Of a DNA stretch of 32,557 bases, positions 63 through 14,401 are shown piece after piece (the stretch's first letter is position 1; the number at the start of each line of letters is the position of its first letter). The position numbers and the translations under genes were made by a program. The notes under the pieces were generated by a model, which was not told the origin of the DNA, searched no databases, and was given only the letters and a program-made list of their open reading frames with translations. The stretch lies in the NCBI GenBank assembly GCA_016934895.1, contig JAFGRZ010000169.1:1-32557 (forward strand), given 5' to 3'. The stretch is from Candidatus Aminicenantes bacterium (GTDB lineage Bacteria; Acidobacteriota; Aminicenantia; Aminicenantales; UBA8522).

Positions 63-488
63 ATGAATGCCATGAGGGTCCAGAGTGAGCTCAAAGAGCT
101 GGACAAAGTCCGCCGGTTTCTGAAGGCCAATTTAGAGAACCTGGAGCTCAGCGAAGAGGATATCTATAAAATCGAGCTCTCGCTCGTCGAGATGTGCACC
201 AATATCATCCGCTACGCCTATCCGCGGGAGAAAGGGGAGATCGCGATCAAGGCCTGGCATGAAAAAGGCGTTTTTTCCCTGGAAATCCGGGACAACGGCG
301 TCCCCTTTGATCCCCGCCAGGTCAAGAGGCCGACCCTCAAGGAGATGATCAACCGGGAGGAAATGGGCGGCCTCGGGATCTTTCTCGCCCGGAAGCTGAT
401 GGACCGGTTTGCGTACCGTCGCGAGGACGGTCAGAACATCTTGACGATGTCCAAGAAAGCCCACGAAAAAAAGGCGAACCGTCAGTAG
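63..488 (+). CDS. RsbW/SpoIIAB-type anti-sigma factor serine protein kinase (GHKL ATPase fold)
   Basis: 141-aa ORF of typical size. N-box-like ELSLVEMCTNIIRYA, G1-like IRDNGVPFD, G2-like GGLGIFLARKLMD. GAGAGG lies 11 nt upstream of the ATG. Confidence 0.8.
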   Translation: MNAMRVQSELKELDKVRRFLKANLENLELSEEDIYKIELSLVEMCTNIIRYAYPREKGEIAIKAWHEKGVFSLEIRDNGVPFDPRQVKRPTLKEMINREEMGGLGIFLARKLMDRFAYRREDGQNILTMSKKAHEKKANRQ

Positions 489-1303
489 AGGACTTCGGCC
501 TCGCTGCTTTTCCCGATCCGCTTGTTGATGTGGTCGATGATCAGGTCTTTCCTCGCCAAAACGGCGTTGATTTCGTCATCCGTCAGATAGCTGCCGATAA
601 AACCTTTGATCTCATCGAAGGTGAGGGCCTTCATTTTCTCGAAGATCTCACGGGGCATGTCCTTTTGCATGAGGCCTTCTTTGTTTTTTTCTCCGTAAGG
701 GATCTGCGTCGTCCATTTCTTTCCGGTCCGGAAACTGCGCGAATGGTCGATCAAGAGGATTCTCCAGTCTTCGGTGATGAGATAGTTGTTCTGGTGGCGG
801 TCCTCGTTGCCGATGAGGTTGTCGAAAAAGCGTTGCAGATTGAGCGCCCTATTCCAGCCGAAAACCTTGATCGGGGGGGTCTTGATCTTTTGCTCGAACT
901 TGGTCTTCATCGTCATTTTGGAGGGAACCCAAAGCTGGCAGGAACCGGGGTTGTTGTGGAATCTTTTCTCGACCGTCGGCGGAACCATGTTGAGACCCAG
1001 GCGCTTGTCGAAGAGGTAGGCGGCGATCTCGTACTTCCAGCCCTCGATATAGCCTTTGACGCGGCCCTGCACATCTTTCCAGAGGGCGTCGTTGGTGATG
1101 CCGTCAAGCTCGAGGGTGAGACGCCAGGGATTGGTAACGGCTTCCGATTTGATCTGCTCATCTTTGACAATGTCGGCGTTGATGAGAAACTCCTCCCACT
1201 TCGCCCTCTCGGCGATTTCCTCGGGTGTGAATTGGGCGAAACAGGGGACCAGCGAGGCGAGGAAGATGATCCCGAACGATGCAACCTTCATTCTCTTTTT
1301 CAT
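482..1303 (-). CDS. Exported PI3/PI4-kinase-fold protein, paralog 1 (catalytic motifs intact)
   Basis: 273 aa with SD AAGGAGG before ATG 1303. Signal peptide MKKRMKVASFGIIFLASLVPCFAQ|F. Motifs ALWKDV, WKYEIAAYLFDKRLGLNMVPPTVEKR, GSCQLWV, IGNEDRHQNNYLI (DRHxxN catalytic loop) and LLIDHSRSF (DFG-equivalent). Paralog of 1337-2173 and 3264-4058. Confidence 0.75.
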   Translation of the reverse strand: MKKRMKVASFGIIFLASLVPCFAQFTPEEIAERAKWEEFLINADIVKDEQIKSEAVTNPWRLTLELDGITNDALWKDVQGRVKGYIEGWKYEIAAYLFDKRLGLNMVPPTVEKRFHNNPGSCQLWVPSKMTMKTKFEQKIKTPPIKVFGWNRALNLQRFFDNLIGNEDRHQNNYLITEDWRILLIDHSRSFRTGKKWTTQIPYGEKNKEGLMQKDMPREIFEKMKALTFDEIKGFIGSYLTDDEINAVLARKDLIIDHINKRIGKSSEAEVLY

Positions 1304-1336
1304 GATCCCTCCTTTCTTTTCCGGGCCTCGGCGGCC

Positions 1337-2173
1337 TCAGTAGAGGACTTTGGCTTCGCCGTTTGCTTTGATCATCCCTTCGATCTCGGCCAAGAGAAGC
1401 GCTTTGCGCTTGATAACCGCCTCGATCTCTTTGTCGGTCAAGTAGGGGCCGACGGCTTCCTTGACGGACTGAAAATCGAGTTTCTTCACGTTATCGACGA
1501 ACCAGCGGGGAAGCCGCCGGAATAAAATCGCCCTGCCGTCAGACCCCCTTTTGAGTCCGTTGGCTCCGAACAAGAGTTTATCGGTATATTCTTTGCCCGA
1601 ACGGAACGCCTGGGAATGGTCGATCAGGATCATCCGCCAGTCCTTGGTATAGAGAACGTTTTGCTGGGTCCGGTCGTCGTTGGCGACCAGGGAGTCCCAG
1701 GCCCTGGTCAGGTATTTCGTGTTTTCGGTCTGGAGGCGAGCGCTTTCCGGGATCTCGATCCCTTCTTCCACGATCTCGAGAAGGCTGTGCTCGCTGGTGA
1801 CCCAATAGACGAGGGCTCCGGGCTTGCCGTTGAATTCCCTCTCCACGGCCGGAGGGACCATATTGATCCCGAGGAGTTTATCCAGCCTGTAGGCGGCGAT
1901 TTCGTATTGCCAACCTTCGAGGAAGCCGTCGCGCAAACCCTTCGGGTTTTTCCAGCAGGCTTCGGCTTTGGTGTTGTTTCTCTGAAGATAGAACTTGAAG
2001 GGCTTGGTGACGCCCTCTCCGATCTCCTCGGACCGGAGGATTTGGGCCGTTTGCAGGAATTCCTCCCAGAAAGGCCGTTGGGCCACCTCATCCGCCGTGA
2101 ACTGGGCGTCCAGCGGAGGGACGGAGACCATGAAAACGACGAGAAATGGCAAAAGCGCGTTCAGGCGCTTCAT
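1337..2173 (-). CDS. Exported PI3/PI4-kinase-fold protein, paralog 2 (catalytic His replaced: DRTQQN)
   Basis: 278 aa with SD GAGGGAG 6 nt before the ATG. Signal peptide MKRLNALLPFLVVFMVSVPPLDAQ|F. Motifs ACWKNP, WQYEIAAYRLDKLLGINMVPPAVERE, VANDDRTQQNVLY, ILIDHSQAF. Lies 33 nt upstream of paralog 1 on the same strand. Confidence 0.75.
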   Translation of the reverse strand: MKRLNALLPFLVVFMVSVPPLDAQFTADEVAQRPFWEEFLQTAQILRSEEIGEGVTKPFKFYLQRNNTKAEACWKNPKGLRDGFLEGWQYEIAAYRLDKLLGINMVPPAVEREFNGKPGALVYWVTSEHSLLEIVEEGIEIPESARLQTENTKYLTRAWDSLVANDDRTQQNVLYTKDWRMILIDHSQAFRSGKEYTDKLLFGANGLKRGSDGRAILFRRLPRWFVDNVKKLDFQSVKEAVGPYLTDKEIEAVIKRKALLLAEIEGMIKANGEAKVLY

Positions 2174-2223
2174 GATAATCTCCCTCGACAGCCCATTTTT
2201 CCCGAAGTCCTCAAGCGAATCCT

Positions 2224-2252
2224 ATGATATTCATATTGCCCCCAAAAATCAA
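2224..2252 (-). promoter_or_regulatory. sigma70-like promoter for the paralog2-paralog1 operon
   Basis: On the minus strand: TTGATT (2252-2247), 17-nt spacer, TATCAT (2229-2224). It sits about 50 nt upstream of ATG 2173. Confidence 0.45.
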
Positions 2253-2264
2253 CAGCGAAATATT

Positions 2265-2292
2265 TTGACAGAAATCCTGTCGATGTTATAAT
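2265..2292 (+). promoter_or_regulatory. Consensus sigma70 promoter for the beta-propeller lipoprotein gene
   Basis: Perfect TTGACA (2265-2270), 16-nt spacer, perfect TATAAT (2287-2292). It is back-to-back with the minus-strand promoter at 2224-2252. Confidence 0.6.
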
Positions 2293-2378
2293 TTCCGCCT
2301 TCATGCCCCCCGGTGTTGACGGATTGTGGGAAAAGAGAGATTCGGGGCAAAAGGCCCATCTCAAAGAAAGGCGCACAG

Positions 2379-3224
2379 GTGAGATCGAAAAGGTTCGTTG
2401 GGGTGATCCTTCCGTTGATTGCTCTTTCATTCTGTTCGGGTCCGCAGCGCGCGCCGCGCATCCGGTTTCCCTATCTGTGGCTGGATGTCCAGGGCTTCGG
2501 CGGGGATATCGACAGGCAACACTTGACCGAACCCTCGGGAATCTCGTACCACCGGCAGAGGGATACGCTTTTTGTCGTGAGCGATGAAGGGGAGATCGCC
2601 GAGATCAGGAGAGACGGGACCCCGGTCGCCAATACCAAGGTCAGGGGGGACCTGGAGTCCGTCGCCGTCGTCCCGGAAACGGGACTTGTCTATATCGGCA
2701 TCGAAGGGGATGATGTCATTCTCGAGTTCGATCCCGTCAAGGGGGAGGTCACCCGGCGCTTTCCCATCAACCGGAGCTTCGATGGAGATCCCGATCTCCT
2801 GAAGAAAAAGACGGACGATTATGACAACGGCATCGAGTCCATGGCCTTCGTGCCCGATCCCGCGCACCCGGAAGGCGGGACGTTCTATGTCGGCAACCAG
2901 TGGGACCCGCCGATGATCATGGAGGTGCTCTGTCCCCTGAAATCGAGCCGGGCCGAGGAAGCCGAGGCCCGGATCATCCGGGTCCTGCCGTTCAGGATGG
3001 ATGACCCGGCGGCCATGTATTACGACCCGGTCACGAAGCTTCTCAACGTCGTCAGCGATGCCGATAACATTCTGGTGGAGATCACCCTAGAGGGCAGGCT
3101 GGTCAACGAGTACGCCTTTCCCGGCGACAACCAGGAGGGCGTATGCCGGGATGACGAGGGGTATCTTTACATCGCCCAGGATTCGGGCGGAATCCTCAAG
3201 GTCAAAGACCTGCGCCGGCGCTGA
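2379..3224 (+). CDS. SdiA-regulated / phytase-like beta-propeller lipoprotein
   Basis: The track ORF begins at GTG 2313. I prefer the in-frame GTG at 2379, which has GAAAGG 7 nt upstream. That start gives the lipoprotein signal MRSKRFVGVILPLIALSF|C. The body has SdiA-regulated-domain-like blocks (ISGISYHRQRDTLFVVSDEGEI, GDLESVAVV, GIESMAFVP, GYLYIAQDSGGI). Confidence 0.65.
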   Translation: MRSKRFVGVILPLIALSFCSGPQRAPRIRFPYLWLDVQGFGGDIDRQHLTEPSGISYHRQRDTLFVVSDEGEIAEIRRDGTPVANTKVRGDLESVAVVPETGLVYIGIEGDDVILEFDPVKGEVTRRFPINRSFDGDPDLLKKKTDDYDNGIESMAFVPDPAHPEGGTFYVGNQWDPPMIMEVLCPLKSSRAEEAEARIIRVLPFRMDDPAAMYYDPVTKLLNVVSDADNILVEITLEGRLVNEYAFPGDNQEGVCRDDEGYLYIAQDSGGILKVKDLRRR

Positions 3225-3263
3225 GAACGCCCTCCGCCGCCCGGCTCTCTTCGGAATTCCCGG

Positions 3264-4058
3264 TCAGAAGAGCACCTTCTCCGAGCCCTTCTCAGCGATT
3301 AGGGCCTCGATCTTTTCGAGAATGAGTTTCCTGCGGATGAGGCAGGCCTCGATCTCCTCATTATTGAGGTATCGACTGAGCGCCGCCCTGGCCGCCTCTT
3401 CATCGAATTCGTTGAGACCCTGGTAGAGCTTTTTGGAGCAGGCGGTCAAGGGGCAGCCCGGCAACAATTCGGGGACGGGAGCGAACGCTTCGGAGAAGTC
3501 CACCCGCCAAACCCGCCAATCCTCCGTCTGGATATAGGTGTCATCGAAATTATAACACTCGTCATAGGCGAGGCTCTCGAACACCTTCAACTCCTCCATG
3601 GCGTTGGCGAACGCTCCGGCGTCCGGCGGTTCGATTTTCTTCCGCTTCCGGTCCTTCTCGCGGATGCCGTTTTCAAGGTAGATCTGAAGAGTGCCCTTCC
3701 GCCCGTCGATTTCTCTCTCGACGACGGGAGGGATCCATTCGATGGAGAGAAGCTTACTGAGCTCATAGGCGGCGATGTCGTATCTATAGCTGTCGGCCAT
3801 GGGTTGAGGCCTCGGCCTATCCACATATCTGAAGAGGGCACGTCGGACGGCGCACTCCTCGGCGAATGTGATGATCCAGGGGCTCGTCCGCCCGGGTTCA
3901 TCCTTGCGGATTCCGGCGATCCGGCATTCCCGAAGGGCGGCCTCGATCGCGGTCCATTTGTTCTTCTCTTCAGCGGGCGCCTGGAACCGGGCGGAAATGC
4001 CCGATCCCAGGACGAAAAAGAGAAGAGCGAGAAGTATCGGAGTCGGTGCGGTCTTCAT
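3264..4058 (-). CDS. Exported PI3/PI4-kinase-fold paralog 3 (degenerate catalytic motifs; probable pseudokinase)
   Basis: 264 aa. Signal peptide MKTAPTPILLALLFFVLGSGISAR|F. It keeps YRYDIAAYELSKLLSIEWIPPVVERE, TEDWRVWRVDFSEAF and the C-terminal YLNNEEIEA...KVLF. The Lys motif is ALFRYV, and the catalytic loop is replaced by AYDECYNFDDTYI. Confidence 0.7.
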   Translation of the reverse strand: MKTAPTPILLALLFFVLGSGISARFQAPAEEKNKWTAIEAALRECRIAGIRKDEPGRTSPWIITFAEECAVRRALFRYVDRPRPQPMADSYRYDIAAYELSKLLSIEWIPPVVEREIDGRKGTLQIYLENGIREKDRKRKKIEPPDAGAFANAMEELKVFESLAYDECYNFDDTYIQTEDWRVWRVDFSEAFAPVPELLPGCPLTACSKKLYQGLNEFDEEAARAALSRYLNNEEIEACLIRRKLILEKIEALIAEKGSEKVLF

Positions 4059-5118
4059 TTTCTAGCCCCCATACGTTGAAATATCCGTTTTCAATGATCA
4101 GAGCCGCTGCGGGTCCGCCGTAGGCCTCGGAAATGCCCGTGTCCACGATCCAGACTCTGCCTCCGAAGCGCTGCATTTCCGTGGCCGTCTTGACCAGCTT
4201 GGGTGTGTGGGCGATGATCATTGTCTTGGCGCCGAGGTTACTCAGCGTCGCGTTCAGTTCGTCCTCAAGGTCCTCCTCGGGGACGGTCGCCAGCTCCCGG
4301 TACCAGAGGGGACTGTCCCCTCGATAGATGATCGAGGGCTGGACGATCCTGGGCGGCTGTGAACGCCGATAAGCGTGCCAATAGTCGGCGATTTCCAGGC
4401 GGTAGCGGTCGTTGATCTCCCGGAGCCCCCACCTCGAGTATTTTTCACTGATTCCGCCGTGGACAAAGACGACGTCATTGATTTTGATGGCGACGTTGAG
4501 CCGGCGCAGCCAGTCTCCGTACTCATCGTTGAGATGGATCACATACTTACTTTGGGCGGCCCGGGTTTTTCGGAGCGATTTCCAGAAATCGTCGATCACA
4601 TCTTTCGGCCTGAAGGAGCGGCCCCGGGAGCGAAGCTTGAGAATCTTCTCGGCCAGTGCATCCTCTTGCTGCTTTCGGTAGTCGTCGGGGAGGAAAGAGA
4701 TGAATTGATCGAGCGTAACGGCCTCGGCCATGGTGCTGAAAACGACGCCTGTGAGGTTCATTTCCTCGTGGTTGCCGAGAAGGACGTGGACCTTTCCGCC
4801 CGCCGCCTCCGCCTCTTCCTCCAATCGGCGCAGGAGGTCGAAAATTCGCCGCGCTTCGGGACCGCGGTCCATGACGTCGCCCGTCTGGACGAGGTGGACA
4901 TCTCCGGCGGCCCAGTGGAGATCGCGATCGACAAGGCCGGTGCCCTTGAGGATCTTGACAAAGTTTCTATAGTCGCCGTGAAGGTCGCCGACGACGGCGA
5001 TCCGCTCGACGTCGGTCCATTCATAAGGAATATCGCGCGACGCCGAAAGCCCTGATAAAACAAGCCATAATAACGAGAAAAGACAAAACAGCAGCCGCCT
5101 GGTCCGCGCAGAACGCAT
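3970..5118 (-). CDS. Exported PPP-family Ser/Thr phosphoprotein phosphatase (calcineurin-like metallophosphoesterase)
   Basis: 382 aa. Signal peptide MRSARTRRLLFCLFSLLWLVLSGLSAS. PPP motifs GDLHGD, GDVMDRG, GNHE, VHGG. The last ~31 codons overlap the start of 3264-4058 by 89 nt and look non-native, so the true 3' end may be near 4062 (see finding). Confidence 0.8.
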   Translation of the reverse strand: MRSARTRRLLFCLFSLLWLVLSGLSASRDIPYEWTDVERIAVVGDLHGDYRNFVKILKGTGLVDRDLHWAAGDVHLVQTGDVMDRGPEARRIFDLLRRLEEEAEAAGGKVHVLLGNHEEMNLTGVVFSTMAEAVTLDQFISFLPDDYRKQQEDALAEKILKLRSRGRSFRPKDVIDDFWKSLRKTRAAQSKYVIHLNDEYGDWLRRLNVAIKINDVVFVHGGISEKYSRWGLREINDRYRLEIADYWHAYRRSQPPRIVQPSIIYRGDSPLWYRELATVPEEDLEDELNATLSNLGAKTMIIAHTPKLVKTATEMQRFGGRVWIVDTGISEAYGGPAAALIIENGYFNVWGLENEDRTDSDTSRSSLFRPGIGHFRPVPGAR

Positions 5119-5126
5119 CTCTTTTT

Positions 5127-5154
5127 ATACTAGACTATCCTGAGGATTAGTCAA
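5127..5154 (-). promoter_or_regulatory. Possible sigma70-like promoter for the phosphatase-paralog3 operon
   Basis: On the minus strand: TTGACT (5154-5149), 16-nt spacer, TAGTAT (5132-5127). Only 8 nt separate the -10 element from ATG 5118. Confidence 0.3.
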
Positions 5155-5168
5155 GCCGGACCCTGGAT

Positions 5169-5197
5169 TTGACTCTCAGAAGACGAACTGCTATGCT
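5169..5197 (+). promoter_or_regulatory. sigma70-like promoter for the ABM-fold gene
   Basis: TTGACT (5169-5174), 17-nt spacer, TATGCT (5192-5197). Its position argues against the track start at 5169. Confidence 0.4.
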
Positions 5198-5234
5198 TGC
5201 TTTGATGCGCAAAAGGATGAAGGAGGGAGATCAT

Positions 5235-5528
5235 ATGTACGCACGCGTGACCGTGATCAATGTCAAGCCGGACAAGGTCGACGAGGCCATCGCGCTCTAC
5301 GCGAACAGTGTCGTTCCCGCTGCCAAGTCCCAGCAAGGATTTATCGGGCTCTACCTCCTCTCGGACAAGCCGACGGGAAAGGGCATGGCCATAACCATGT
5401 GGGAGTCGGAAATGGACGCCCTGGCCAATGAGCGCAGCCGCTATTACCAGGAGCAGCTGGTCAAGTTCATCGAGTTTTTTCAGTCCCCGCCGATCCGCGA
5501 GGGTTATGAGATCAGCGTCCGGGCCTGA
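5235..5528 (+). CDS. Antibiotic-biosynthesis-monooxygenase (ABM/Dabb) fold protein
   Basis: AGGAGGGAG at 5221-5229 precedes ATG 5235. The 97-aa product MYARVTVINVKPDKVDEA...MAITMWESEMDALA has the ferredoxin-like ABM pattern. Confidence 0.65.
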   Translation: MYARVTVINVKPDKVDEAIALYANSVVPAAKSQQGFIGLYLLSDKPTGKGMAITMWESEMDALANERSRYYQEQLVKFIEFFQSPPIREGYEISVRA

Positions 5529-5573
5529 ACCGCGCGCGATGTCGAGGCCGCGAAAGAACCCGGGCGGGCGGTA

Positions 5574-5602
5574 TTGCCTCTCTCTCTGAATTGGATTATA
5601 TT
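5574..5602 (+). promoter_or_regulatory. sigma70-like promoter for the NYN-LOTUS gene
   Basis: TTGCCT (5574-5579), 17-nt spacer, TATATT (5597-5602). The track start at 5591 lies inside this promoter. Confidence 0.35.
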
Positions 5603-5641
5603 GAGGGACAGCACAAAACATCATCCTCCAGGAGAATCACC

Positions 5642-6409
5642 ATGGTCGAACAATTCGGCGACAGCCAGGCGGCCAAGATCGCCATGCTCATCGACGGGGA
5701 CAACGCCCAGCCGACTCTCATCGGCGGGATCATCACCGAGACGGCCAAGCACGGCGCGATCACGATCCGCCGGGTTTACGGAGACTGGACGACGGCTAAT
5801 ATGGCCGGCTGGAAAAACGTCCTGAATAACTATGCTATCCAGCCCATCCAGCAATTTCGCTATACCGTCGGAAAAAACTCCACGGACAGCGCCATGATCA
5901 TCGATGCCATGGATCTCCTCCACAGCCACCTCGTCAACGGATTCTGCCTCGTTTCGAGCGACAGCGATTACACCCGCCTGGCGACGCGGATCAGGGAAGC
6001 GGGTGTTTTCGTTATGGGGATCGGAAAAACGACCACCCCCAAGGCCTTCGTCAACGCCTGCAACATTTTCATCGTCACCGAGAACCTCTCTCCCAGGCAA
6101 ATCCCCCGCCGGGGAAAAGGGCCGGCCAAAGCGGCCCCTCCTAAAGAGGACAAGCCCAAGGAGCTCGATCCGCTGCCCCTGCTCCGGGGCGCCTATGAAA
6201 TGGCCGTCCAGGAGGACGGCTGGGCGAACCTGGGAACCCTCGGATTCTATCTCCATCAGCTCGACCCGAGCTTTGATCCCCGCACGTACGGCTTCAAACA
6301 GTTGTCTCAGCTCATCAGGAAGCATTCCAACTCGTTTGAGCTCAAGTTCCGGGAAGAAGGCGGGACGACCAACGTCTATATGAGAAGCAAGGAATCGCCC
6401 GCACCCTAG
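5642..6409 (+). CDS. NYN-domain (LabA-like) protein with C-terminal OST-HTH/LOTUS domain
   Basis: AGGAGA lies 6 nt before ATG 5642. NYN blocks: [46 protein letters not shown] basic Pro/Lys linker follows, then a LOTUS-like stretch [33 protein letters not shown]. Confidence 0.75.
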
Positions 6410-7962
6410 GGCTGGACTTCTGAGAGGAAAGAGCGGAGCTTTCCTCCCTTGCTGAAACTTTCCAGCTTCCGGAGCGCCTTGGCTTCGATCTGGCGGATGC
6501 GCTCACGGGTCACCTTGAAGACATCGCCCACTTCTTCCAGAGTGTGCTCCTTGCCGTCAATGAGGCCGAACCGGAGCTTCAGCACCTCGGCCTCTCTCTC
6601 GGTGAGACTGTCCAGAGCCTGCTCGATCTGTTCCCGAAGGCTGCGATGGATCACCGCTTCTTCGGGAGAAGGACCGGTCTTGTCTTCGATGAATTCGCCG
6701 AGCCGGCTGTCCTCTTCGTCCCCCACGGGCGCGTCGAGCGAAACGGATTCCTGGGCGGCCTTGATGATCTCTCTCACCTTGGCGACCGACAAGCCCATTT
6801 TGCGGGCGAGTTCTTCGTGGGTCGGCTCACGTCCTCTGTCCTGGACGCTCGTCTGGATGAGTTTCTTCAGCCGATTGATCGTTTCGACCATGTGCACGGG
6901 GATGCGGATGGTCCTGGCCTGGTCGGCGATCGAGCGCGTGATGGCCTGCTTGATCCACCATGTCGCATAGGTGGAGAATTTGTATCCGCGCCGGTAATCG
7001 AATTTTTCGACCGCGCGCATGAGCCCGATATTTCCCTCCTGGATCAGGTCGAGGAATCCCAGGCCGCGATGGGTGTATTTTTTGGCGATGGAGACCACCA
7101 GCCGGAGGTTGGCCTCAACGAGTTCTTTTTTGGCACGGTCGCTCAACTGTTTCCCCAGGCTGATCTGCCGGAGGATGTCCCCGGACTGCCGGCACGTGAT
7201 CCCGAGCTCATCCCGGCCTTTTCTCAAATCCTTCTTGACCTCGGCGAGCTTCTTGAGGAGTTCCGCGCGTTTCTGCCGGTCCTTGATGCGGCGCAGGCTC
7301 GTCTCCAGTTCCTCCCGGGCTTCGGCCAGTTCACAATAATGCTGGAAGCGGGAACGCATCCGCTCGATGATCATTTCCAGGCGCGTCGGCCAGATGCTGA
7401 GCCGGCCGATGAGCTGGATGATCTTAACGACCAGGCGTCCCCTGGCGAAGACATTCTTTTTCCGGGCCGGGATCTTTCCCAGGACGGAATCGATCTGTTT
7501 GATCTTCCTGAAGACCTTGATGGTGTCCTTTCGCCGGATCTCCAGCCTGTCTTCATCAAGGTCGTCGCCGCAGTCGAAGATATCGGGCATGGCCATGAGA
7601 TCCCGTTTGACCGCCTCTTCCAAGGCAGACATCTCGGTTAAAAGCAGGCGGGTGCGGGTCAGCGCCTTGAGGATGGTTTTCTGACCCTTTTCGATCTGCT
7701 TGGCCAGCCCGATCTCTCCCTGTCGGGTCAAAAGGGAGATGCTTCCCATGTCCCGCAGATAGAGCTTAACCGGATCCGTCGTGATATCGTCGCCTTCGGG
7801 CGGAAGCAGCGCTTCCAGATGTCCGCGAGGTTTGGCGATATGCCGGGCGTCATCCTTGAATAGGCTGGATAATCTTTCGAAATCCGCCTCGATGGATCTC
7901 TTCGTTCGCGAGGACGCCGTCCGGCGTCCTCCTCGGGAAGAGCGTCGTTTCAGACCGGCCAA
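6406..7962 (-). CDS. rpoD: RNA polymerase primary sigma factor (sigma-70)
   Basis: 518 aa. Region 1.2: [21 protein letters not shown]. Region 2: [63 protein letters not shown]. Regions 3 and 4: [30 protein letters not shown] start with GAGG 7 nt upstream. Confidence 0.92.
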
Positions 7963-8089
7963 GTCAAAACCTCATTTCTTGTCGAGTTTCCCATGGCTAT
8001 CGCCCGTAATGAAGAACATCCGCGACCCTTGGAAAACGACTATTTTCATTTTCCCAAAATTCCTAAAAAAAAGCAAAATCTTTGTCTGG

Positions 8090-8119
8090 TTGACATTCCT
8101 CCCCGTCTTTTGATATTAG
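8090..8119 (+). promoter_or_regulatory. sigma70-like (extended -10) promoter for the STAS gene
   Basis: Perfect TTGACA (8090-8095), 18-nt spacer ending in TGa, then TATTAG (8114-8119). It lies in the AT-richer rpoD-STAS divergent region. Confidence 0.4.
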
Positions 8120-8157
8120 CTGGAAGGGAAGGCCCGCTTGAGAGAGGACGGGACGAC

Positions 8158-8499
8158 ATGAAGATATCGGCGAGAGACAGGAACGACATCGTCATCTTCG
8201 ACATGGAGGGGGAGATCAAGCGGTCGGATGTCGCCGAGGTGACCCTCCATCAGCTCGTCAAAGAACAGCTCGACTCGGGCAAGAGGAAGATCGTCCTCAA
8301 TTTCGACCGGGTGGAATTCATCGACAGCTTCGGAGTGGGGGAGATCCTGGCGAGCTACATTTCCACCCACAACCTGGGGGGAAAACTCAAGCTGGTGAAG
8401 ATTTCGCAGAAACTGTATCTCATCTTCCAGGTGACGATGTTGACCAAGGTCCTTGATATCTTCGATGATGAAGAGGCGGCCGTGAAGAGTTTATCATGA
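8158..8499 (+). CDS. STAS-domain anti-sigma factor antagonist (RsbV/SpoIIAA-like)
   Basis: The track ORF starts at 7993, upstream of the promoter. ATG 8158 gives a 113-aa STAS protein, MKISARDRNDIVIFDMEGEI...VEFIDSFGVGEIL. The phosphorylatable Ser sits in the DSFG context. Confidence 0.8.
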   Translation: MKISARDRNDIVIFDMEGEIKRSDVAEVTLHQLVKEQLDSGKRKIVLNFDRVEFIDSFGVGEILASYISTHNLGGKLKLVKISQKLYLIFQVTMLTKVLDIFDDEEAAVKSLS

Positions 8500-8608
8500 G
8501 GGTCAGCGGCCGCCTGGCAGCCCAAAAAAGCCATTGCCGCGCAAGCCGCCCGATCCGGATGGGCGACGAAAAGCATGCCCGGGCGCATGGCCTGATGGCT
8601 GTCCCGGT

Positions 8609-8637
8609 TTGACTTCCGCTCAGCGTATTGATAATTT
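8609..8637 (+). promoter_or_regulatory. Possible promoter directly abutting the transporter start codon
   Basis: TTGACT (8609-8614), 17-nt spacer, TAATTT (8632-8637). An alternative is a 15-nt spacer with GATAAT at 8630-8635. ATG 8645 follows with no SD. Confidence 0.3.
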
Positions 8638-8644
8638 TAATCCA

Positions 8645-11140
8645 ATGAAGCTTGTCGGTATCCGGCCCGGTGAAGAGAAGCTGGCCTTTCTGCTGTTCGG
8701 CTATTTTTTTTTGATCACCACTCCCCACACTGTTATCAAGGCCCTGCGCACGACGGACCTTTTGGTCAAGATGGGGGCCGGGGCTCTCCCGCTTGCCTAT
8801 CTCAGCGCGGCCGTGGTCACCGGTTTGGTCGTCGTCTTTCATTCTAAAATCCAGTCCAAGATTTCCATCCGGATCCTGATCATCGCCAGCCTTGTTTTCT
8901 TTGCCGTCTCCGGGCTGGCCCTGCAGTTCATCCTCCAGACGGAAACCGGCCGGAGAAGCGCCCTCCTTCCTTACATCTATTGGGTCTGGGCCGCCGTCCT
9001 CATCGTCGTGCTCATAACCCATTTCTGGATGACCGTCAACGAGATCTTCAACCCAAGGGAAGCCAAGCGGCTGATCGCCTTTATCAGCAGCGGCGGGATC
9101 CTCGGCGGCATCCTCGGAGGGCTGCTGGCCGGCGTCCTGACCCGGGCGAACCAAGCCGGCCTGCTCCTCCCCCTGGCCTGCGCTCTCCTCCTGGCCTGTA
9201 TATTTGTGGTCCAGGCCGTTTTCCGGGACCGGCAAAGACTCCCGGTGATTGCCAAACCGGTTCCGCCCGGCAAAGTGCAGCCGGAGGCGTCCAAGGTGGG
9301 TTTTAAGGACAGCTTCGATGCCGTCCGCAAGAATTCCTATCTCGTGCTGATCGCCGCCGTCGTCGCCATCGGCGTTATTGTCTCGACCCTCATAGAATTC
9401 CAGTTCTTTTCGGCGGCTTCCGAGAGATACGAGCGCGCCAACGAGATGCAAGCCTTTTTCGGTTTCTTTTTCGCCGGCCTGACGGTCTTTGCCTTTTTCC
9501 TGAACGCTTTTTTGACCGGGAATTTCATAAAGAAGCTGGGTGTCAAGCTCACCGTTCTCCTGACTCCGGCTGTCCTCCTGCTCTGTTCCGTCGGAGTTCT
9601 GATTGCGCCCTTTGGCCTGATTCCGGCGCTCATCATCAAGGGCGGCGATGAAAGCCTGGCCTTCTCTCTCAATCAGACGGTCAGGGAGATTCTTTACATA
9701 CCGGTGGCATCGGCGTTGAAATTCAAAGCCAAGCCGTTCATCGACATGTTCATCAGCCGGGCGGCGAAGGTCGTGGCGGCCATCATCCTTCTCGTTTTCG
9801 CCCTTGTCCTCAACAAGGATGTGGATTATCTCACCCCGATTTTCGATCCCGGTCTGGCGAAGCAGCTGAGCTGGATGGCCATCGCGTTCCTGATCGCCTG
9901 GGGGGTGTTCAGTTTGAGAATCGGCAGGGAATACGTTGACACCATCAATCGGAGCATCAAGTTGAAATGGGACCGGGTTGACCAAAGCGTGATGGAGCAG
10001 ATCGACGTCGATTCCGCCAAGGAGATTTTCGATGCCGTGGAAAGCCGGAATCGAAGCGCTGTTCTCTATGCCATGCACGTGTTTGACCTGTTGCAGCGGG
10101 ACAAATTGACCCCGGAAATCAAGAACATGATTTCCGAAAAGGCCGGGGAAGTCCGGGTTTCCTCGATCAGCGACCTGTTCAATGCCGAAGGGGCGCCCGG
10201 AGTTCCGGAAACCGATGAGGACATTCGGCAGGAAGATCTCGTCACCGATATCCGGGAAATCATGTCGCTGGACGCTTATCAGAAGCTGATGGAAGGACAC
10301 GCGGGAAAGGTTTTGGCGGAAAGCCAGAAATCCGAGGTTGAAAAAATGGAGCTGGCGAAGGCGATCGGGTTGATGAGCCCCGATGCCCCTCTGACCGATC
10401 GCCTCGTGACGTTGATCGATGATCACTCGCCTGATGTCTCCGGCTATGCCCTGAAAAGCGCGGCCAGGCTCAAGAAACAAAACTACCTCCCGGCGATCAT
10501 CCGCAAGCTGGGCAATCCTTTGACCCGGGAAGATGCCGCGAGCGCCCTTCACAAATACGGCCCGGCGGCCATGCCGGCTCTGGAAGGGAGCCTCACGGAC
10601 AGCCGCCAGGACCTGAATTTGAGAAAAGCTGTGGTTGAGACGCTGGCCCGCATCGGGACGAAGGAGGCGGCCTTCGCTCTGGCGAGAGAACTCGATCAGG
10701 GGCGTGGGGAGCTGGACCCGGAAATCATCGACGCCCTGGATCGCATCCGGACGCAAAAAGGAGACGTCCAGTTGCCGGCCCGGTCGGCCAAGAGAAAAAC
10801 CCTTTCACTCGTTCATAGATACTGCCGGATTTTCCTCGACATCCAAGATCTCGGGCCGGGGGAGGACATCGAGACCGCCCGCCGACGGATGGAACGCGAG
10901 CTGGAGATCCTTTTCTCGGACATCTTCAAGTTGCTGGGGCTTTATTATCCTCAGGAAGAGATCCGCAAGGCCTATCAAAACATAGAAACCGGAACCCGAA
11001 ACTCGATCGCGTACGCCATCGAATTGCTCGACAACACGCTGAAAAGAGATATCCGGGACGTTATCATTCCCCTGGTCGAGGACCTGTCTCCTTCGGAAAG
11101 ACGGCGGAGTTTTCAGAAGATTCTCAAGAACTCCCCGTGA
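8645..11140 (+). CDS. TLC/NTT-like (ATP/ADP-translocase family) membrane transporter fused to a C-terminal HEAT-repeat domain
   Basis: I prefer ATG 8645 over the track's TTG at 8534, because the extra 37 aa are Pro/Gly/Arg-rich. The N-terminal ~470 aa are polytopic, with a TLC-like start EEKLAFLLFGYFFLITTPHTVIKALRTTDLLV..GAGALPLAYL. The C-terminal ~350 aa are helical repeats including PBS-lyase/HEAT-like LGNPLTREDAASALHKYGPAAMPAL...RKAVVETLARIGTKEAAFALAREL. Confidence 0.7.
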   Translation: MKLVGIRPGEEKLAFLLFGYFFLITTPHTVIKALRTTDLLVKMGAGALPLAYLSAAVVTGLVVVFHSKIQSKISIRILIIASLVFFAVSGLALQFILQTETGRRSALLPYIYWVWAAVLIVVLITHFWMTVNEIFNPREAKRLIAFISSGGILGGILGGLLAGVLTRANQAGLLLPLACALLLACIFVVQAVFRDRQRLPVIAKPVPPGKVQPEASKVGFKDSFDAVRKNSYLVLIAAVVAIGVIVSTLIEFQFFSAASERYERANEMQAFFGFFFAGLTVFAFFLNAFLTGNFIKKLGVKLTVLLTPAVLLLCSVGVLIAPFGLIPALIIKGGDESLAFSLNQTVREILYIPVASALKFKAKPFIDMFISRAAKVVAAIILLVFALVLNKDVDYLTPIFDPGLAKQLSWMAIAFLIAWGVFSLRIGREYVDTINRSIKLKWDRVDQSVMEQIDVDSAKEIFDAVESRNRSAVLYAMHVFDLLQRDKLTPEIKNMISEKAGEVRVSSISDLFNAEGAPGVPETDEDIRQEDLVTDIREIMSLDAYQKLMEGHAGKVLAESQKSEVEKMELAKAIGLMSPDAPLTDRLVTLIDDHSPDVSGYALKSAARLKKQNYLPAIIRKLGNPLTREDAASALHKYGPAAMPALEGSLTDSRQDLNLRKAVVETLARIGTKEAAFALARELDQGRGELDPEIIDALDRIRTQKGDVQLPARSAKRKTLSLVHRYCRIFLDIQDLGPGEDIETARRRMERELEILFSDIFKLLGLYYPQEEIRKAYQNIETGTRNSIAYAIELLDNTLKRDIRDVIIPLVEDLSPSERRRSFQKILKNSP

Positions 11141-13048: not shown

Positions 13049-14401
13049 ATGATACGCCGCCGGCCCTCTCTACGGTCAACCGTCATCATCATGGGTCTTT
13101 GGCCATTTCTCGTCGGTTCTTTCTTCGGCTGCCGCGGCGAACCCGCGAAACCCGCTCCTGCCTCCTCCCGTGTCAAGCTCGGCATCGAGGTCCTGCTGGA
13201 AAGCCGGCTCGATCTGATCATGGGAAAAAAGGTCGGGCTGATCACCAACCCCACCGGCGTGGACGGCCGTCTCCGCAGGGACATCGATCTTCTCCTCCAG
13301 GCTGAGGGAGTGAATCTTGTCGCCCTTTACGGGCCCGAGCACGGCGTGCGGGGAAATGCCCAGGCCGGCGAATACGTCCCTTTTTATTTCGATGACAAAT
13401 ACAAGGTCGGGGCCTGCCAGATCCCTGTCTTCAGCCTCTACGGACAGTCATTGAAACCGGAGGCCGGGATGTTCAAGAAGATCGATGAATACATGCGCTC
13501 GTTCGACACGACGGCTTCGGGCAAGATTCCCGAAAGCGCGATGATCGAGGACGTCGATATCCTGGTCTATGATATTCAGGATGTCGGGACCCGCGTCTAT
13601 ACTTACGTGGCGACGATGGCCTATGCCATGCCGGCGGCCGCCGAAAGCGGAATTCCGTTCGTCGTGCTTGACCGTCCGAATCCGGTCAACGGCGTGGATA
13701 TGGAAGGCCCGGTACTGGATTATCCGGAGTACAGCTCTTTCATCGGGCTTTACCCCGTGCCGGAGAGACATGGCATGACGGTCGGAGAGCTGGCCCTGTT
13801 GATCAATGACCGGTTCCTGGAGAAAAAAGTCGACTTGACGGTCGTGGCGATGGAAGGCTGGCGACGGGAAATGGGATTTGACGAGACGGGCCTTCTCTGG
13901 GTCATTCCCTCGCCGAACATGCCCACGCCGGAGACGGCGATCGTCTATCCCGGCCAGGTCTGTCTTGAGGGAACGAACGTCTCCGAAGGGCGGGGAACAA
14001 CAAGACCGTTCGAGCTCTTCGGCGCTCCCTGGATCGACGGCTTTGAACTTGCCCGGGAGCTGAACGCATTGCGTCTCCCCGGCGTCCTCTTCCGGGAGGC
14101 CTGGTTCACGCCGAGCTTTTCCAAGTTCTCGGGCGAGGTTTGCGGCGGCGCGCAGGTTCACGTGACCGACCGGAAGGCCTACCGCCCTTTTGAGACCGCC
14201 CTGCATATCGTCAAGACGGTCAGGGATCGGCATCCGGACAGGTTCGAGTTTCATGCCGACTATTTCGACAAGGTTATGGGGACGGCGAAAATCAGGGAGG
14301 GACTGAAAGCCGGCCTGAGTATCGCCGAAATCGTCAGGGGCTACGAACCCGGGCTGAAAGAGTTCGCCGAGCTGCGCCGTCCCTACCTTTTATACGAGTA
14401 G
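13049..14401 (+). CDS. DUF1343-family lipoprotein (NamZ/YbbC-like exo-beta-N-acetylmuramidase family)
   Basis: AAAGGA lies 7 nt before the ATG. The lipobox is in LVGSFFG|C. DUF1343 blocks: KVGLITNPTGVD, LYGPEHGVRG, ILVYDIQDVGTRVYTY, VLDRPNP, SPNMPT. Confidence 0.8.
   Translation: MIRRRPSLRSTVIIMGLWPFLVGSFFGCRGEPAKPAPASSRVKLGIEVLLESRLDLIMGKKVGLITNPTGVDGRLRRDIDLLLQAEGVNLVALYGPEHGVRGNAQAGEYVPFYFDDKYKVGACQIPVFSLYGQSLKPEAGMFKKIDEYMRSFDTTASGKIPESAMIEDVDILVYDIQDVGTRVYTYVATMAYAMPAAAESGIPFVVLDRPNPVNGVDMEGPVLDYPEYSSFIGLYPVPERHGMTVGELALLINDRFLEKKVDLTVVAMEGWRREMGFDETGLLWVIPSPNMPTPETAIVYPGQVCLEGTNVSEGRGTTRPFELFGAPWIDGFELARELNALRLPGVLFREAWFTPSFSKFSGEVCGGAQVHVTDRKAYRPFETALHIVKTVRDRHPDRFEFHADYFDKVMGTAKIREGLKAGLSIAEIVRGYEPGLKEFAELRRPYLLYE

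Follow-up and report, generated by a model that had tools for sequence, protein, structure and literature searches.

The periplasm is routinely said to lack ATP, and bacteria are generally thought incapable of ATP-driven phosphorylation outside the cytoplasm, a view that leaves the reported phosphorylation of envelope proteins, as well as exported phosphatases of the PPP family, without a kinase or an energy source. How, then, could a bacterium make use of kinase-like proteins that carry signal peptides? The question is raised by a stretch of 32,557 nucleotides from a Candidatus Aminicenantes bacterium, an uncultured organism of sediment (assembly GCA_016934895.1, contig JAFGRZ010000169.1, positions 1 to 32,557; hereafter the window), which encodes three paralogous kinase-fold proteins, here called K1, K2 and K3, and a PPP phosphatase, all predicted to be exported. 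We find that relatives of these proteins recur in several phyla together with genes for NTT/TLC nucleotide transporters (ATP:ADP antiporter-type), and that this conserved transporter homolog is a candidate answer to the problem of a kinase without ATP in its compartment.

An initial annotation of the window had described a cluster of five exported proteins, namely three PI3/PI4-kinase-fold paralogs, a PPP phosphatase and a beta-propeller lipoprotein, and all five open reading frames are indeed present. The genes for K1 (482-1303, 273 residues), K2 (1337-2173, 278 residues), K3 (3264-4058, 264 residues) and the phosphatase (3970-5118, 382 residues) lie on the minus strand, while the propeller gene lies on the plus strand. 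The closest homologs are 82-87% identical. The paralogy claimed for the three kinase-like proteins extends over their full length, with K1 and K2 41% identical and K1 and K3 25% identical, and every sequence block that had been quoted is present; the blocks common to all three are YEIAAY..DK.LG...VPP.VE[KR], T[EK]DWR...[IV]D[HF]S..F, YL[TN]..EI.A and a C-terminal VL[YF].

Export was scored with a charge and hydrophobicity heuristic that looks for an n-region, an h-region and a small-x-small cleavage site. By this measure, K1, K2, K3 and the phosphatase each have all three features, the n-region being charged and the h-region hydrophobic, with predicted cleavage at VPCFA/QFT in K1, PPLDA/QFT in K2, GSGISA/RFQ in K3 and LSGLSA/SRD in the phosphatase, whereas the cytoplasmic controls encoded in the window (the RsbW-like, RpoD, NYN and STAS proteins) score negative. 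Positive scores are also obtained for 116 of 139 representatives of the family at large and for 97 of 109 phosphatase-kinase fusions, in agreement with the signal peptides first proposed for the window proteins. As a separate observation, the Gln directly after the predicted cleavage site (A/QFT) is invariant in K1, K2 (residue 24; window positions ~1235 and ~2105) and 10 relatives in our tighter family alignment, A3, which was also used to retrieve loci, and AQF or AQL stands at the cleavage site in many family representatives. This Gln resembles the N-terminal Gln/pyroglutamate "Q-rule" that a passage in PMC5837995 reports for Bacteroidetes SPI substrates.

The AlphaFold2 model of K1 (pLDDT 92.9, pTM 0.89) has a two-lobed, protein-kinase-like fold, which confirms the fold class that had been proposed from motifs. 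A Foldseek search with this model returned Fam20C (5yh0) first (E 1.5e-8, TMq 0.65), followed by PI4KIIa (E 5.6e-8) and then by Vps34 and PI3Ks; there were 234 PDB matches at E <= 1e-3, and the 50 listed were all Fam20C, PI4K or PI3K-type lipid kinases. At the level of sequence, searches with one paralog at a time gave too little signal for classification and a family profile was needed: K1 to K3 searched individually against Pfam gave E-values of 0.002-0.02, scattered over PI3_PI4_kinase, Fam20C, HipA_2 and FAM198, and the best PDB match of K1 alone was Fam20B. A profile built from an 88-member family alignment (A2) matched, among solved proteins, FAM20A (E 1e-13), Fam20B (1.9e-10), zebrafish Fam20C (1.1e-9), human FAM20C (9e-9), C. 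elegans Fam20 (9.5e-7) and PI4K2B (3.6e-5). These alignments take in the beta3 Lys and the EIAA[FY]xLDxxLxxxxVPP block and continue through the GNxDRH loop and the metal Asp to the C-terminal helix. By both profile and Foldseek comparison, the Fam20 secretory-pathway kinases are the closest characterised relatives of the K family, rather than PI3K/PI4K proper. The PI3/PI4-kinase-type core that had been recognized initially thus has the right fold class and catalytic-loop logic, but Fam20 is the better match. The family is large, as profile searches retrieve 4143 clusters (50% identity) at E <= 1e-3, including 651 at E <= 1e-30.

Almost all members of the family fall below the cut-offs of curated models, which argues that it lies outside the families that these models describe. 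TIGR03843, the model of the SCO1664 family, scores K1 at 43.5 bits (E 2.3e-11, model positions 54-234 of 253), K2 at 32.7 and K3 at 19.5 against a cut-off of 172.4; it is matched by 87 of the 88 family members at E <= 0.01 (best 6e-19), with none near the cut-off, so that the resemblance to SCO1664 noted initially is pervasive but far too weak for membership. Pfam PI3_PI4_kinase (PF00454) gives K1 18.5 bits against a threshold of 27.1 and matches 30 of the 88 members at E <= 0.01 (best 2e-7). Pfam Fam20C (PF06702) gives K1 15.5 bits against 26.8, does not match K2 or K3, and matches 11 of the 88 at E <= 0.01, among which P0123 reaches 29.4 bits. HipA_2 is weakly matched by 19 of the 88, and only P0123 reaches its cut-off (29.8 bits). 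On these profiles, the K family is best placed as an uncurated branch of the PI3/4K-Fam20-HipA part of the superfamily of protein-kinase-like (PKL) proteins. The likeness of its catalytic loop to the GNxDxHxxN loop of HipA-type kinases, also remarked upon initially, is real, although Fam20 and PI4K match better. We rejected a reading of the K proteins as HipA-like toxins on the grounds that they are exported by the heuristic, have no antitoxin partner and match Fam20/PI4K better. Two further observations concern family members elsewhere. A Kdo kinase model (NF002475) is weakly matched by 12 of the 88 (best 4.7e-6), which may hint at a sugar substrate or reflect generic fold similarity. Some members carry two tandem kinase-like domains, such as P0123 (671 residues) and P0139 (898 residues), the latter arranged as PPP, a degenerate K domain (KESDD) and a K domain with Asp-Asn-Asp intact (KDDND), and therefore a pseudokinase-kinase pair in one polypeptide.

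We mapped five active-site positions across the family, namely the beta3 Lys, the alphaC Glu, the Asp and Asn of the catalytic loop, and the Asp that binds metal. At these positions (K76, E92, D168, N173 and D186) both K1 and K2 read KEDND. The GNEDRHQNN loop reported for the first paralog is present in K1, its counterpart in K2 is ANDDRTQQN, and the loop is degenerate in K3. With their catalytic set intact, K1 and K2 look catalytically competent. Their orthologs, retrieved from 80 Aminicenantes species genomes with K1-like sequences, read KEDND in 64 of 69 cases for K2, while the 81 K1 orthologs divide into 34 KEDND and 47 KEDQD. In K3, the signature is RDCDD, reflecting replacement of the beta3 Lys by Arg, the alphaC Glu by Asp and the catalytic Asp by Cys. 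Its orthologs in the same genomes all lack the catalytic Asp (KECDD, KERDD, RDCDD, KGSDD), and because this residue is absent from every one of them K3 is predicted to be a conserved pseudokinase; an active K3 was rejected on the same ground. In soil lineages, separate K genes mostly read QNDND and PPP-fused K domains REDND or KEDND, such that the Asp-Asn-Asp triad is retained while the Lys/Glu pair changes together. Overall, the catalytic Asp, Asn and metal Asp are retained in most of 158 domains.

The phosphatase has the PPP motifs GDLHGD, GDVMDRG, GNHE and VHGG and passes the Pfam Metallophos threshold (PF00149, 50.3 bits against 21.5), in accord with its initial assignment as a PPP metallophosphatase. 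Its match to the Shewanella protein-tyrosine phosphatase (2z72/1v73) has an E-value of 2.7e-31 and covers both halves of the catalytic domain, with weaker matches to ApaH (1.7e-7), PrpE (1e-4) and PrpA/B (5e-5), and by this comparison the protein is a Shewanella-like PPP (Shelph).

Kinase-like and phosphatase genes are coupled well beyond the window. Among well-flanked Aminicenantes loci, 42 of 47 have the phosphatase gene within 10 kb of K1. The recurring gene order in the 80 Aminicenantes genomes is PPP > K3 > (TLC) < propeller, K2 > K1 > < RsbW, and in 55 of 73 loci the gene immediately upstream of K1 is a K2 ortholog. Seven Aminicenantes loci have PPP and K3 as a single, fused open reading frame. 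In other lineages, a signal peptide, a Metallophos domain and a K domain follow one another in eight of ten long family members, and a search with one such fusion (P0225) retrieved 3254 clusters at E <= 1e-10, with most of the best 120 about 700 residues long at a query coverage of at least 95%. The named fusions come from Acidobacteriota (Terriglobia and Thermoanaerobaculia) and one from Myxococcota, and are annotated only as "metallophosphoesterase". The linkage to a phosphatase that the initial annotation had anticipated is thus borne out within Aminicenantes and, as fusion, elsewhere. The AlphaFold2 model of P0225 (pLDDT 91, pTM 0.63) contains two confident domains joined by a disordered linker (residues 392-411); we looked for a fixed arrangement of the two domains in this model and found none, nor any sign that the active sites face each other. 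Given the disordered linker between confident domains, the PPP and K domains look tethered, not rigidly packed. One metagenome contig (L106:1412-10627) carries three PPP-K fusion genes and two TLC genes, and looks like a local expansion of these genes.

The junction between the two genes is informative about where their products act. In the window, the last 89 nt of PPP run into the start of K3 in another frame (3970-4058), and in our reading the two genes are translationally coupled. Where K3 is a separate gene it has its own signal peptide in 44 of 46 cases, and where it is fused behind the signal peptide of the phosphatase it has no internal hydrophobic segment or signal peptide. On this pattern, both proteins evidently need a location outside the cytoplasm. 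Since seven related loci have a single open reading frame, the junction appears to flip between fused and split states. We considered a single PPP-K3 gene with a frameshift in the window and rejected it; both an ATG and a signal peptide belong to K3 itself, which is equally the case in 44 of the 46 orthologs encoded separately, and two genes are therefore the better reading. The C-terminal tail of the phosphatase that lies inside K3 (~30 residues, many of them Arg, Ser and Pro) may be read-through that is not conserved.

The third partner was absent from the initial annotation and was identified here. In two independent fusion loci, L082 and L085, a TLC gene (PF03219) lies immediately upstream of the fusion on the same strand, and its product carries fused HEAT repeats together with a cNMP-binding domain (cNBD) that is either fused or encoded by the next gene. 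The window itself encodes a homolog of this transporter at 8534-11140 on the plus strand (868 residues), with TLC (64.9 bits against a cut-off of 21) and C-terminal HEAT_2 (31.8 against 27.7) domains, a phmmer E-value of 4e-56, and matches to the solved ADP,ATP carrier 9j3n (6e-11) and to chloroplast NTT1 (2.8e-5). About 11 hydrophobic segments (residues 50-463) precede a soluble C-terminus of ~400 residues. Source annotations of these transporters read "Npt1/Npt2 family nucleotide transporter" or "AAA family ATP:ADP antiporter".

In Aminicenantes, a TLC homolog is found within 10 kb in 52 of 81 loci, and a short, TLC-only gene (~475 residues) directly follows K3 on the same strand in 36 of 57. 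A set of 80 metagenome loci (L086-L165), retrieved by similarity to the phosphatase or the fusion alone, contains a TLC gene in 53, in 50 of them within 800 bp of the phosphatase. In 26 of these loci the phosphatase is flanked by 3 kb or more on each side, and of these 26 a TLC gene is present in 21, a K gene in 23 and the two together in 21. The metagenome loci show five or more different gene orders, and linkage that survives such rearrangement points to function rather than inherited synteny. We consider it very probable that the three gene types, K, Shelph and NTT/TLC, form a functional module. The kinase fold, the signal peptides (by the heuristic) and the linkage of homologs in other genomes to the phosphatase, on which the initial annotation had let its interpretation depend, were all found.

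As a reverse test, we picked five NTT-HEAT-cNBD genes by transporter similarity alone, and three of them have a gene for an exported Shelph immediately downstream. Several conserved contexts were observed around transporters of this kind. Downstream of NTT-Shelph in L167:10917-13069, L169:10763-12900 and L170:10595-12801 are two conserved predicted lipoproteins (~300 and ~415 residues) that match no Pfam family; the next gene encodes a Hanks-type Ser/Thr kinase in L169 and L170 and is TPR/PEGA-like in L167. NTT-HEAT-cNBD genes without a Shelph neighbour, in L166:9514-14112 and L168:9607-15191, have a second conserved context, in which they are followed by genes for a 67-residue Cys-rich (zinc-ribbon-like) protein, a ~920-residue protein with HATPase_c_3 and a transglutaminase core, and a ~510-residue unannotated protein; no obvious signal peptide is seen in any of these. 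Beside the fusion P0286 (L083/L084:3536-4820), the TLC homolog is split into three short genes on the opposite strand, and is either a decayed gene or the product of assembly frameshifts.

The transporter genes also have regulatory neighbours. A gene for a STAS-domain protein of the anti-sigma-antagonist type (7993-8499, plus strand; Pfam STAS 44.1 bits) lies 35 nt upstream of the window transporter, and of 31 long TLC-HEAT genes in Aminicenantes, 26, that of the window among them, have a STAS gene directly upstream on the same strand. At the other end of the module, an RsbW-type anti-sigma factor/serine kinase gene (63-488, plus strand; HATPase_c_2, PF13581, 110.7 bits) is convergent with K1 and overlaps its 3' end, an arrangement of convergent, adjacent genes that recurs in 51 of 75 loci, again including the window. 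The equivalent place is taken in Acidobacteriota by a cNMP-binding domain or by a cNMP gene of its own. The cytoplasmic HEAT domain may thus be a regulatory platform, with the STAS protein as a candidate cytoplasmic regulator and the RsbW-type protein as a possible partner of STAS.

The remaining member of the original cluster, the propeller, is less closely tied to the other genes. Its open reading frame spans 2313-3224 on the plus strand, with the likely true start at a GTG at 2379, after an AGAAAGG motif. The resulting lipoprotein candidate (2379-3224) passes the Pfam thresholds for both SdiA-regulated (PF06977, 47.8 bits against 21) and Phytase-like (PF13449, 46.9 against 27.6), and its h-region is followed by a Cys (LSF/C) that is kept in 33 of 34 orthologs, although the Phe at -1 is atypical. 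Against PDB sequences, it matches only designed propellers and a PQQ-like protein. While its classification as an SdiA-regulated/phytase-like propeller is upheld, its linkage is weaker: 23 of 47 well-flanked Aminicenantes loci have it, and the 80 loci from other phyla (L086-L165) all lack it. The propeller may be an Aminicenantes-specific accessory, possibly a substrate or a scaffold.

How these components would work together can be put as follows. We assign a probability of about 0.45 to a mechanism in which the NTT swaps cytoplasmic ATP for periplasmic ADP and inorganic phosphate (Pi) and thereby feeds an exported kinase/phosphatase cycle. The inner-membrane transporter would operate in export mode, with cytoplasmic ATP moving out and periplasmic ADP and Pi moving in; K1 and K2 would use the exported ATP to phosphorylate a periplasmic or envelope substrate, which could be a protein or glycan; and the Shelph phosphatase, which K3 might target or regulate, would take the phosphate off. 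ATP supply could be gated from the cytoplasm via the HEAT domain, through STAS/RsbW in Aminicenantes or through the cNMP-binding domain in Acidobacteriota. NTT-type carriers exchange ATP against ADP and Pi in a 1:1 ratio (PMC2606016), and since the net products of kinase and phosphatase, ADP and Pi, are the counter-substrates of characterised NTTs, such a cycle would close.

A number of observations weigh against this mechanism. Periplasmic ATP would be expected to leak through outer-membrane porins. Export is read from the heuristic, and the active sites are not uniformly canonical, in that Gln takes the place of the metal-binding Asn in 47 of the 81 K1 orthologs (the window K1 retains Asn) and the beta3 Lys/alphaC Glu pair is replaced by R/E or Q/N in many family members. 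Gene linkage has exceptions as well. The window transporter lies 3.4 kb from the phosphatase, behind four unrelated genes (ABM, NYN, RpoD and STAS), and the window lacks the short TLC gene that follows K3 in other loci; one complete genome has K2-K1, a propeller fragment and RsbW with no PPP or TLC gene within 10 kb. In the reverse test, no K-family gene lies within 6 kb of any of the five transporters, and two of the five have neither partner. Given that three of five have a Shelph and none a K gene, the transporter and phosphatase may be the core, or tightest, pair. Transport direction is a further difficulty: PamNTT1, the one NTT examined in this respect, strongly favours ATP import, with negligible ATP exchange in the opposite direction, and the same study argues against Pi co-transport by this carrier (PMC1951785), while the NTT-HEAT clade has no characterised member (PMC5381601).

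In the main rival explanation, the module processes or salvages nucleotides, with an NTT that imports, a Shelph that acts in the periplasm on nucleotides or dinucleoside polyphosphates, and periplasmic K proteins that serve as nucleotide-binding or nucleotide-converting partners and not as kinases of proteins or glycans. Every functionally characterised NTT is indeed an importer (PMC5381601, PMC1951785), the phosphatase weakly matches the Ap4A hydrolases ApaH and PrpE (1.7e-7 and 1e-4), three of five reverse-test loci have the transporter and phosphatase genes together with no K gene nearby, and K3 and other subgroups persist despite having lost catalytic residues, as a binding module would. 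However, by far the best characterised relative of the phosphatase is a protein-tyrosine phosphatase (2.7e-31 compared with ~1e-7 for ApaH), the charged nucleotides transported by NTTs would not survive a phosphatase, and the loci contain no recurring genes for nucleases or nucleotidases; the Asp, Asn and metal Asp, for which a mere binding protein would have no need, are retained in most K domains, and a periplasmic kinase would still require a phosphodonor. Overall we judge salvage unlikely. Somewhat less likely, in our estimation, is that ATP is exported as proposed and the K proteins carry out a different chemistry, either AMPylation or glutamylation (as in SelO and SidJ) or phosphorylation of lipids or lipopolysaccharide (LPS) sugars in the outer leaflet or outer membrane, with the Shelph reversing or editing the mark. 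Protein-kinase-like folds do catalyse non-kinase reactions (PMC10870513), Fam20B is a sugar kinase (PMC7948968), and the family has both weak matches to PI3_PI4_kinase and Kdo kinase (30 and 12 of 88) and large subgroups in which the beta3 Lys is replaced by R or Q, as in atypical kinases. Yet the K, E, D, N, D set of K1 and K2 is canonical, as plain phosphotransfer would lead one to expect, their partner is a PPP of the phosphomonoesterase type, and the conserved neighbourhood holds no lipid- or LPS-biosynthesis genes.

It is also conceivable, if improbable, that the K domains are non-catalytic subunits that target or regulate the phosphatase, much as pseudokinases scaffold other enzymes. There would then be no extracytoplasmic phosphorylation; the substrates of the phosphatase would be phosphorylated before export or in the environment, and the NTT would recover Pi or nucleotides. 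The constant pairing or fusion of the pseudokinase K3 with PPP would fit this account, as would two well-folded domains on a flexible linker in the fusion model and the fact that Pi is also carried by NTTs (PMC2606016). It is harder to reconcile with the PPP-fused K domains of Acidobacteriota, which keep the Asp, Asn and metal Asp (REDND, KEDND), or with K1 and K2, which are fully canonical and, it seems, transcribed apart from PPP, and it leaves unexplained why the conserved partner is an ATP:ADP-type carrier, not a phosphate transporter. The initial annotation had offered, as another option, the processing of inositol phosphates or phytate through the phytase-like propeller, in keeping with the Phytase-like score of 46.9 bits and with the action of PI4K-type kinases on inositol lipids. 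Nothing that we found supports a role in phytate or inositol metabolism: the SdiA-regulated score of the propeller is as good as its Phytase-like score, its solved matches are generic designed propellers, no inositol-metabolism genes lie nearby, and the 80 loci from other phyla, like the Aminicenantes loci outside the 23 of 47, do without the propeller, although those 80 keep PPP and most keep K or TLC. We regard this option as highly improbable. An exported kinase/phosphatase cycle fed by ATP exchange remains our preferred explanation of the module.

Promoter-like sequences in the window bear on how its genes are expressed. Consensus scans located pattern matches before the K2-K1 pair (2224-2252, minus strand; TTGATT-17-TATCAT) and before PPP-K3 (5127-5154, minus strand; TTGACT-16-TAGTAT), and a perfect extended sigma-70 consensus before the propeller (2265-2292, plus strand; TTGACA-16-TGnTATAAT, 12/12), divergent from K2. 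These three sites suggest three transcription units, namely PPP-K3, the propeller alone, and K2-K1. With an intergenic gap of 33 nt between K2 and the downstream K1, these two genes probably form one operon. Between the phosphatase gene and the STAS-NTT pair are ABM, NYN/OST-HTH (LabA-like) and RpoD-type sigma factor genes (5169-7962), an insertion that is shared with the closest relative (L003) and is absent from most other loci. Further downstream, 13049-14401 encodes a NamZ-type exo-beta-N-acetylmuramidase with a lipoprotein-like N-terminus, an envelope-recycling enzyme that is probably unrelated to the module.

The module provides candidate genes for kinase, phosphatase and ATP supply in a single neighbourhood, and the linkage of NTT-HEAT(-cNBD) transporters to kinase-like and phosphatase proteins that are predicted to be exported gives these transporters a concrete functional hypothesis. 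A bacterial, probably exported family of more than 4000 clusters (50% identity) with significant profile similarity to Fam20 reframes the origins of secretory-pathway kinases, and thousands of proteins labelled "metallophosphoesterase" or "hypothetical protein" hold an unannotated kinase-like domain. A wider proposal, which we put forward only tentatively and consider more doubtful than the mechanism itself, is that free-living bacteria (Aminicenantes, Acidobacteriota, Myxococcota and others) run periplasmic ATP-dependent phosphorylation in which NTT-HEAT(-cNBD) proteins export ATP, the K family represents the prokaryotic sister group, possibly the ancestors, of Fam20, and Shelphs reverse the mark. 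If true, this would assign the first function to the NTT-HEAT transporters of free-living bacteria, contradict the textbook view of an ATP-free periplasm, and imply that lumenal or extracytoplasmic phospho-signalling is older than eukaryotes.

Several known systems resemble parts of the module. The actinobacterial SCO1664 proteins are not known to carry signal peptides. Their NCBIfam model, TIGR03843, describes an uncharacterised PI3/PI4-kinase-like family and is the closest curated sequence model to the K family, whose scores nevertheless stay far below its 172.4-bit cut-off. Type II PI4K and PI3K/Vps34 have the fold class and catalytic-loop logic in common with the K family, but match it less well than Fam20 does and are cytosolic, membrane-associated lipid kinases of eukaryotes. 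HipA-type kinases share a similar GNxDxHxxN loop, but are cytoplasmic toxin kinases, and no antitoxin partner is present. With the Shelphs, represented by the cold-active protein-tyrosine phosphatase 1V73/2Z72, the window phosphatase shares GDxHG, GDxxDRG and GNHE; what sets the phosphatases described here apart is a kinase-like domain as coupled or fused partner and the linkage with an NTT gene, and our literature search found no kinase or NTT partner described for Shelphs. NTT-HEAT(-cNBD) fusions are widespread in free-living bacteria, without an assigned function (Major et al. 2017, PMC5381601). The window transporter has the same TLC plus HEAT_2 architecture, and its Acidobacteriota counterparts partner with cNMP-binding domains as described there, whereas no phosphatase or kinase-like link is reported in that study.

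The closest parallel is with Fam20. In the literature that we searched, no bacterial or prokaryotic Fam20-like family is described (a search that did not extend to the contents of the KINtaro database), nor is a periplasmic protein kinase with an ATP supply or ATP transporter, in line with the initial statement that no characterised bacterial system of this kind is known. Fam20 itself is described as animal-restricted (PMC9758233, PMC7948968), while the K family is bacterial. The K core is also shorter (~250 residues, as against ~400 in Fam20), K1 scores below the Pfam Fam20C cut-off, and the K family is linked or fused to Shelphs, while the transporter to which it is linked belongs to the NTT and not to the SLC35 family. 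Yet the likeness extends from molecule to compartment. Fam20 is the best structural and profile match among solved proteins and shares with the K family the beta3 Lys in an xFK context, the EIAA[FY]xLDxxLxxxxVPP block, the GNxDRHxxN loop, the C-terminal helix and a metal site of the form D-x-[GS]..F. Fam20 reaches a non-cytosolic compartment by means of a signal peptide, as the K family is predicted to do, and both sets of paralogs include a conserved pseudokinase: Fam20C is a protein kinase, Fam20B a xylosylkinase (PMC7948968) and Fam20A a pseudokinase beside Fam20C (PMC5865150), as K3 stands beside K1 and K2. Lumenal phosphorylation of the Fam20 type fed by an ATP/ADP exchanger is known, and the module would be a bacterial variant of it, without precedent among bacterial systems in the literature searched. 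In the endoplasmic reticulum (ER), ATP reaches the lumen through a dedicated ATP/ADP exchanger, AXER/SLC35B1 (PMC6113206), and a passage in PMC9769683 places a Toxoplasma Shelph in the same organelle, such that lumenal Fam20 supplied by AXER and, as far as that passage goes, apicomplexan Shelphs of the ER together offer a eukaryotic counterpart to the exported kinase-like proteins, phosphatase and nucleotide exchanger encoded in the window.

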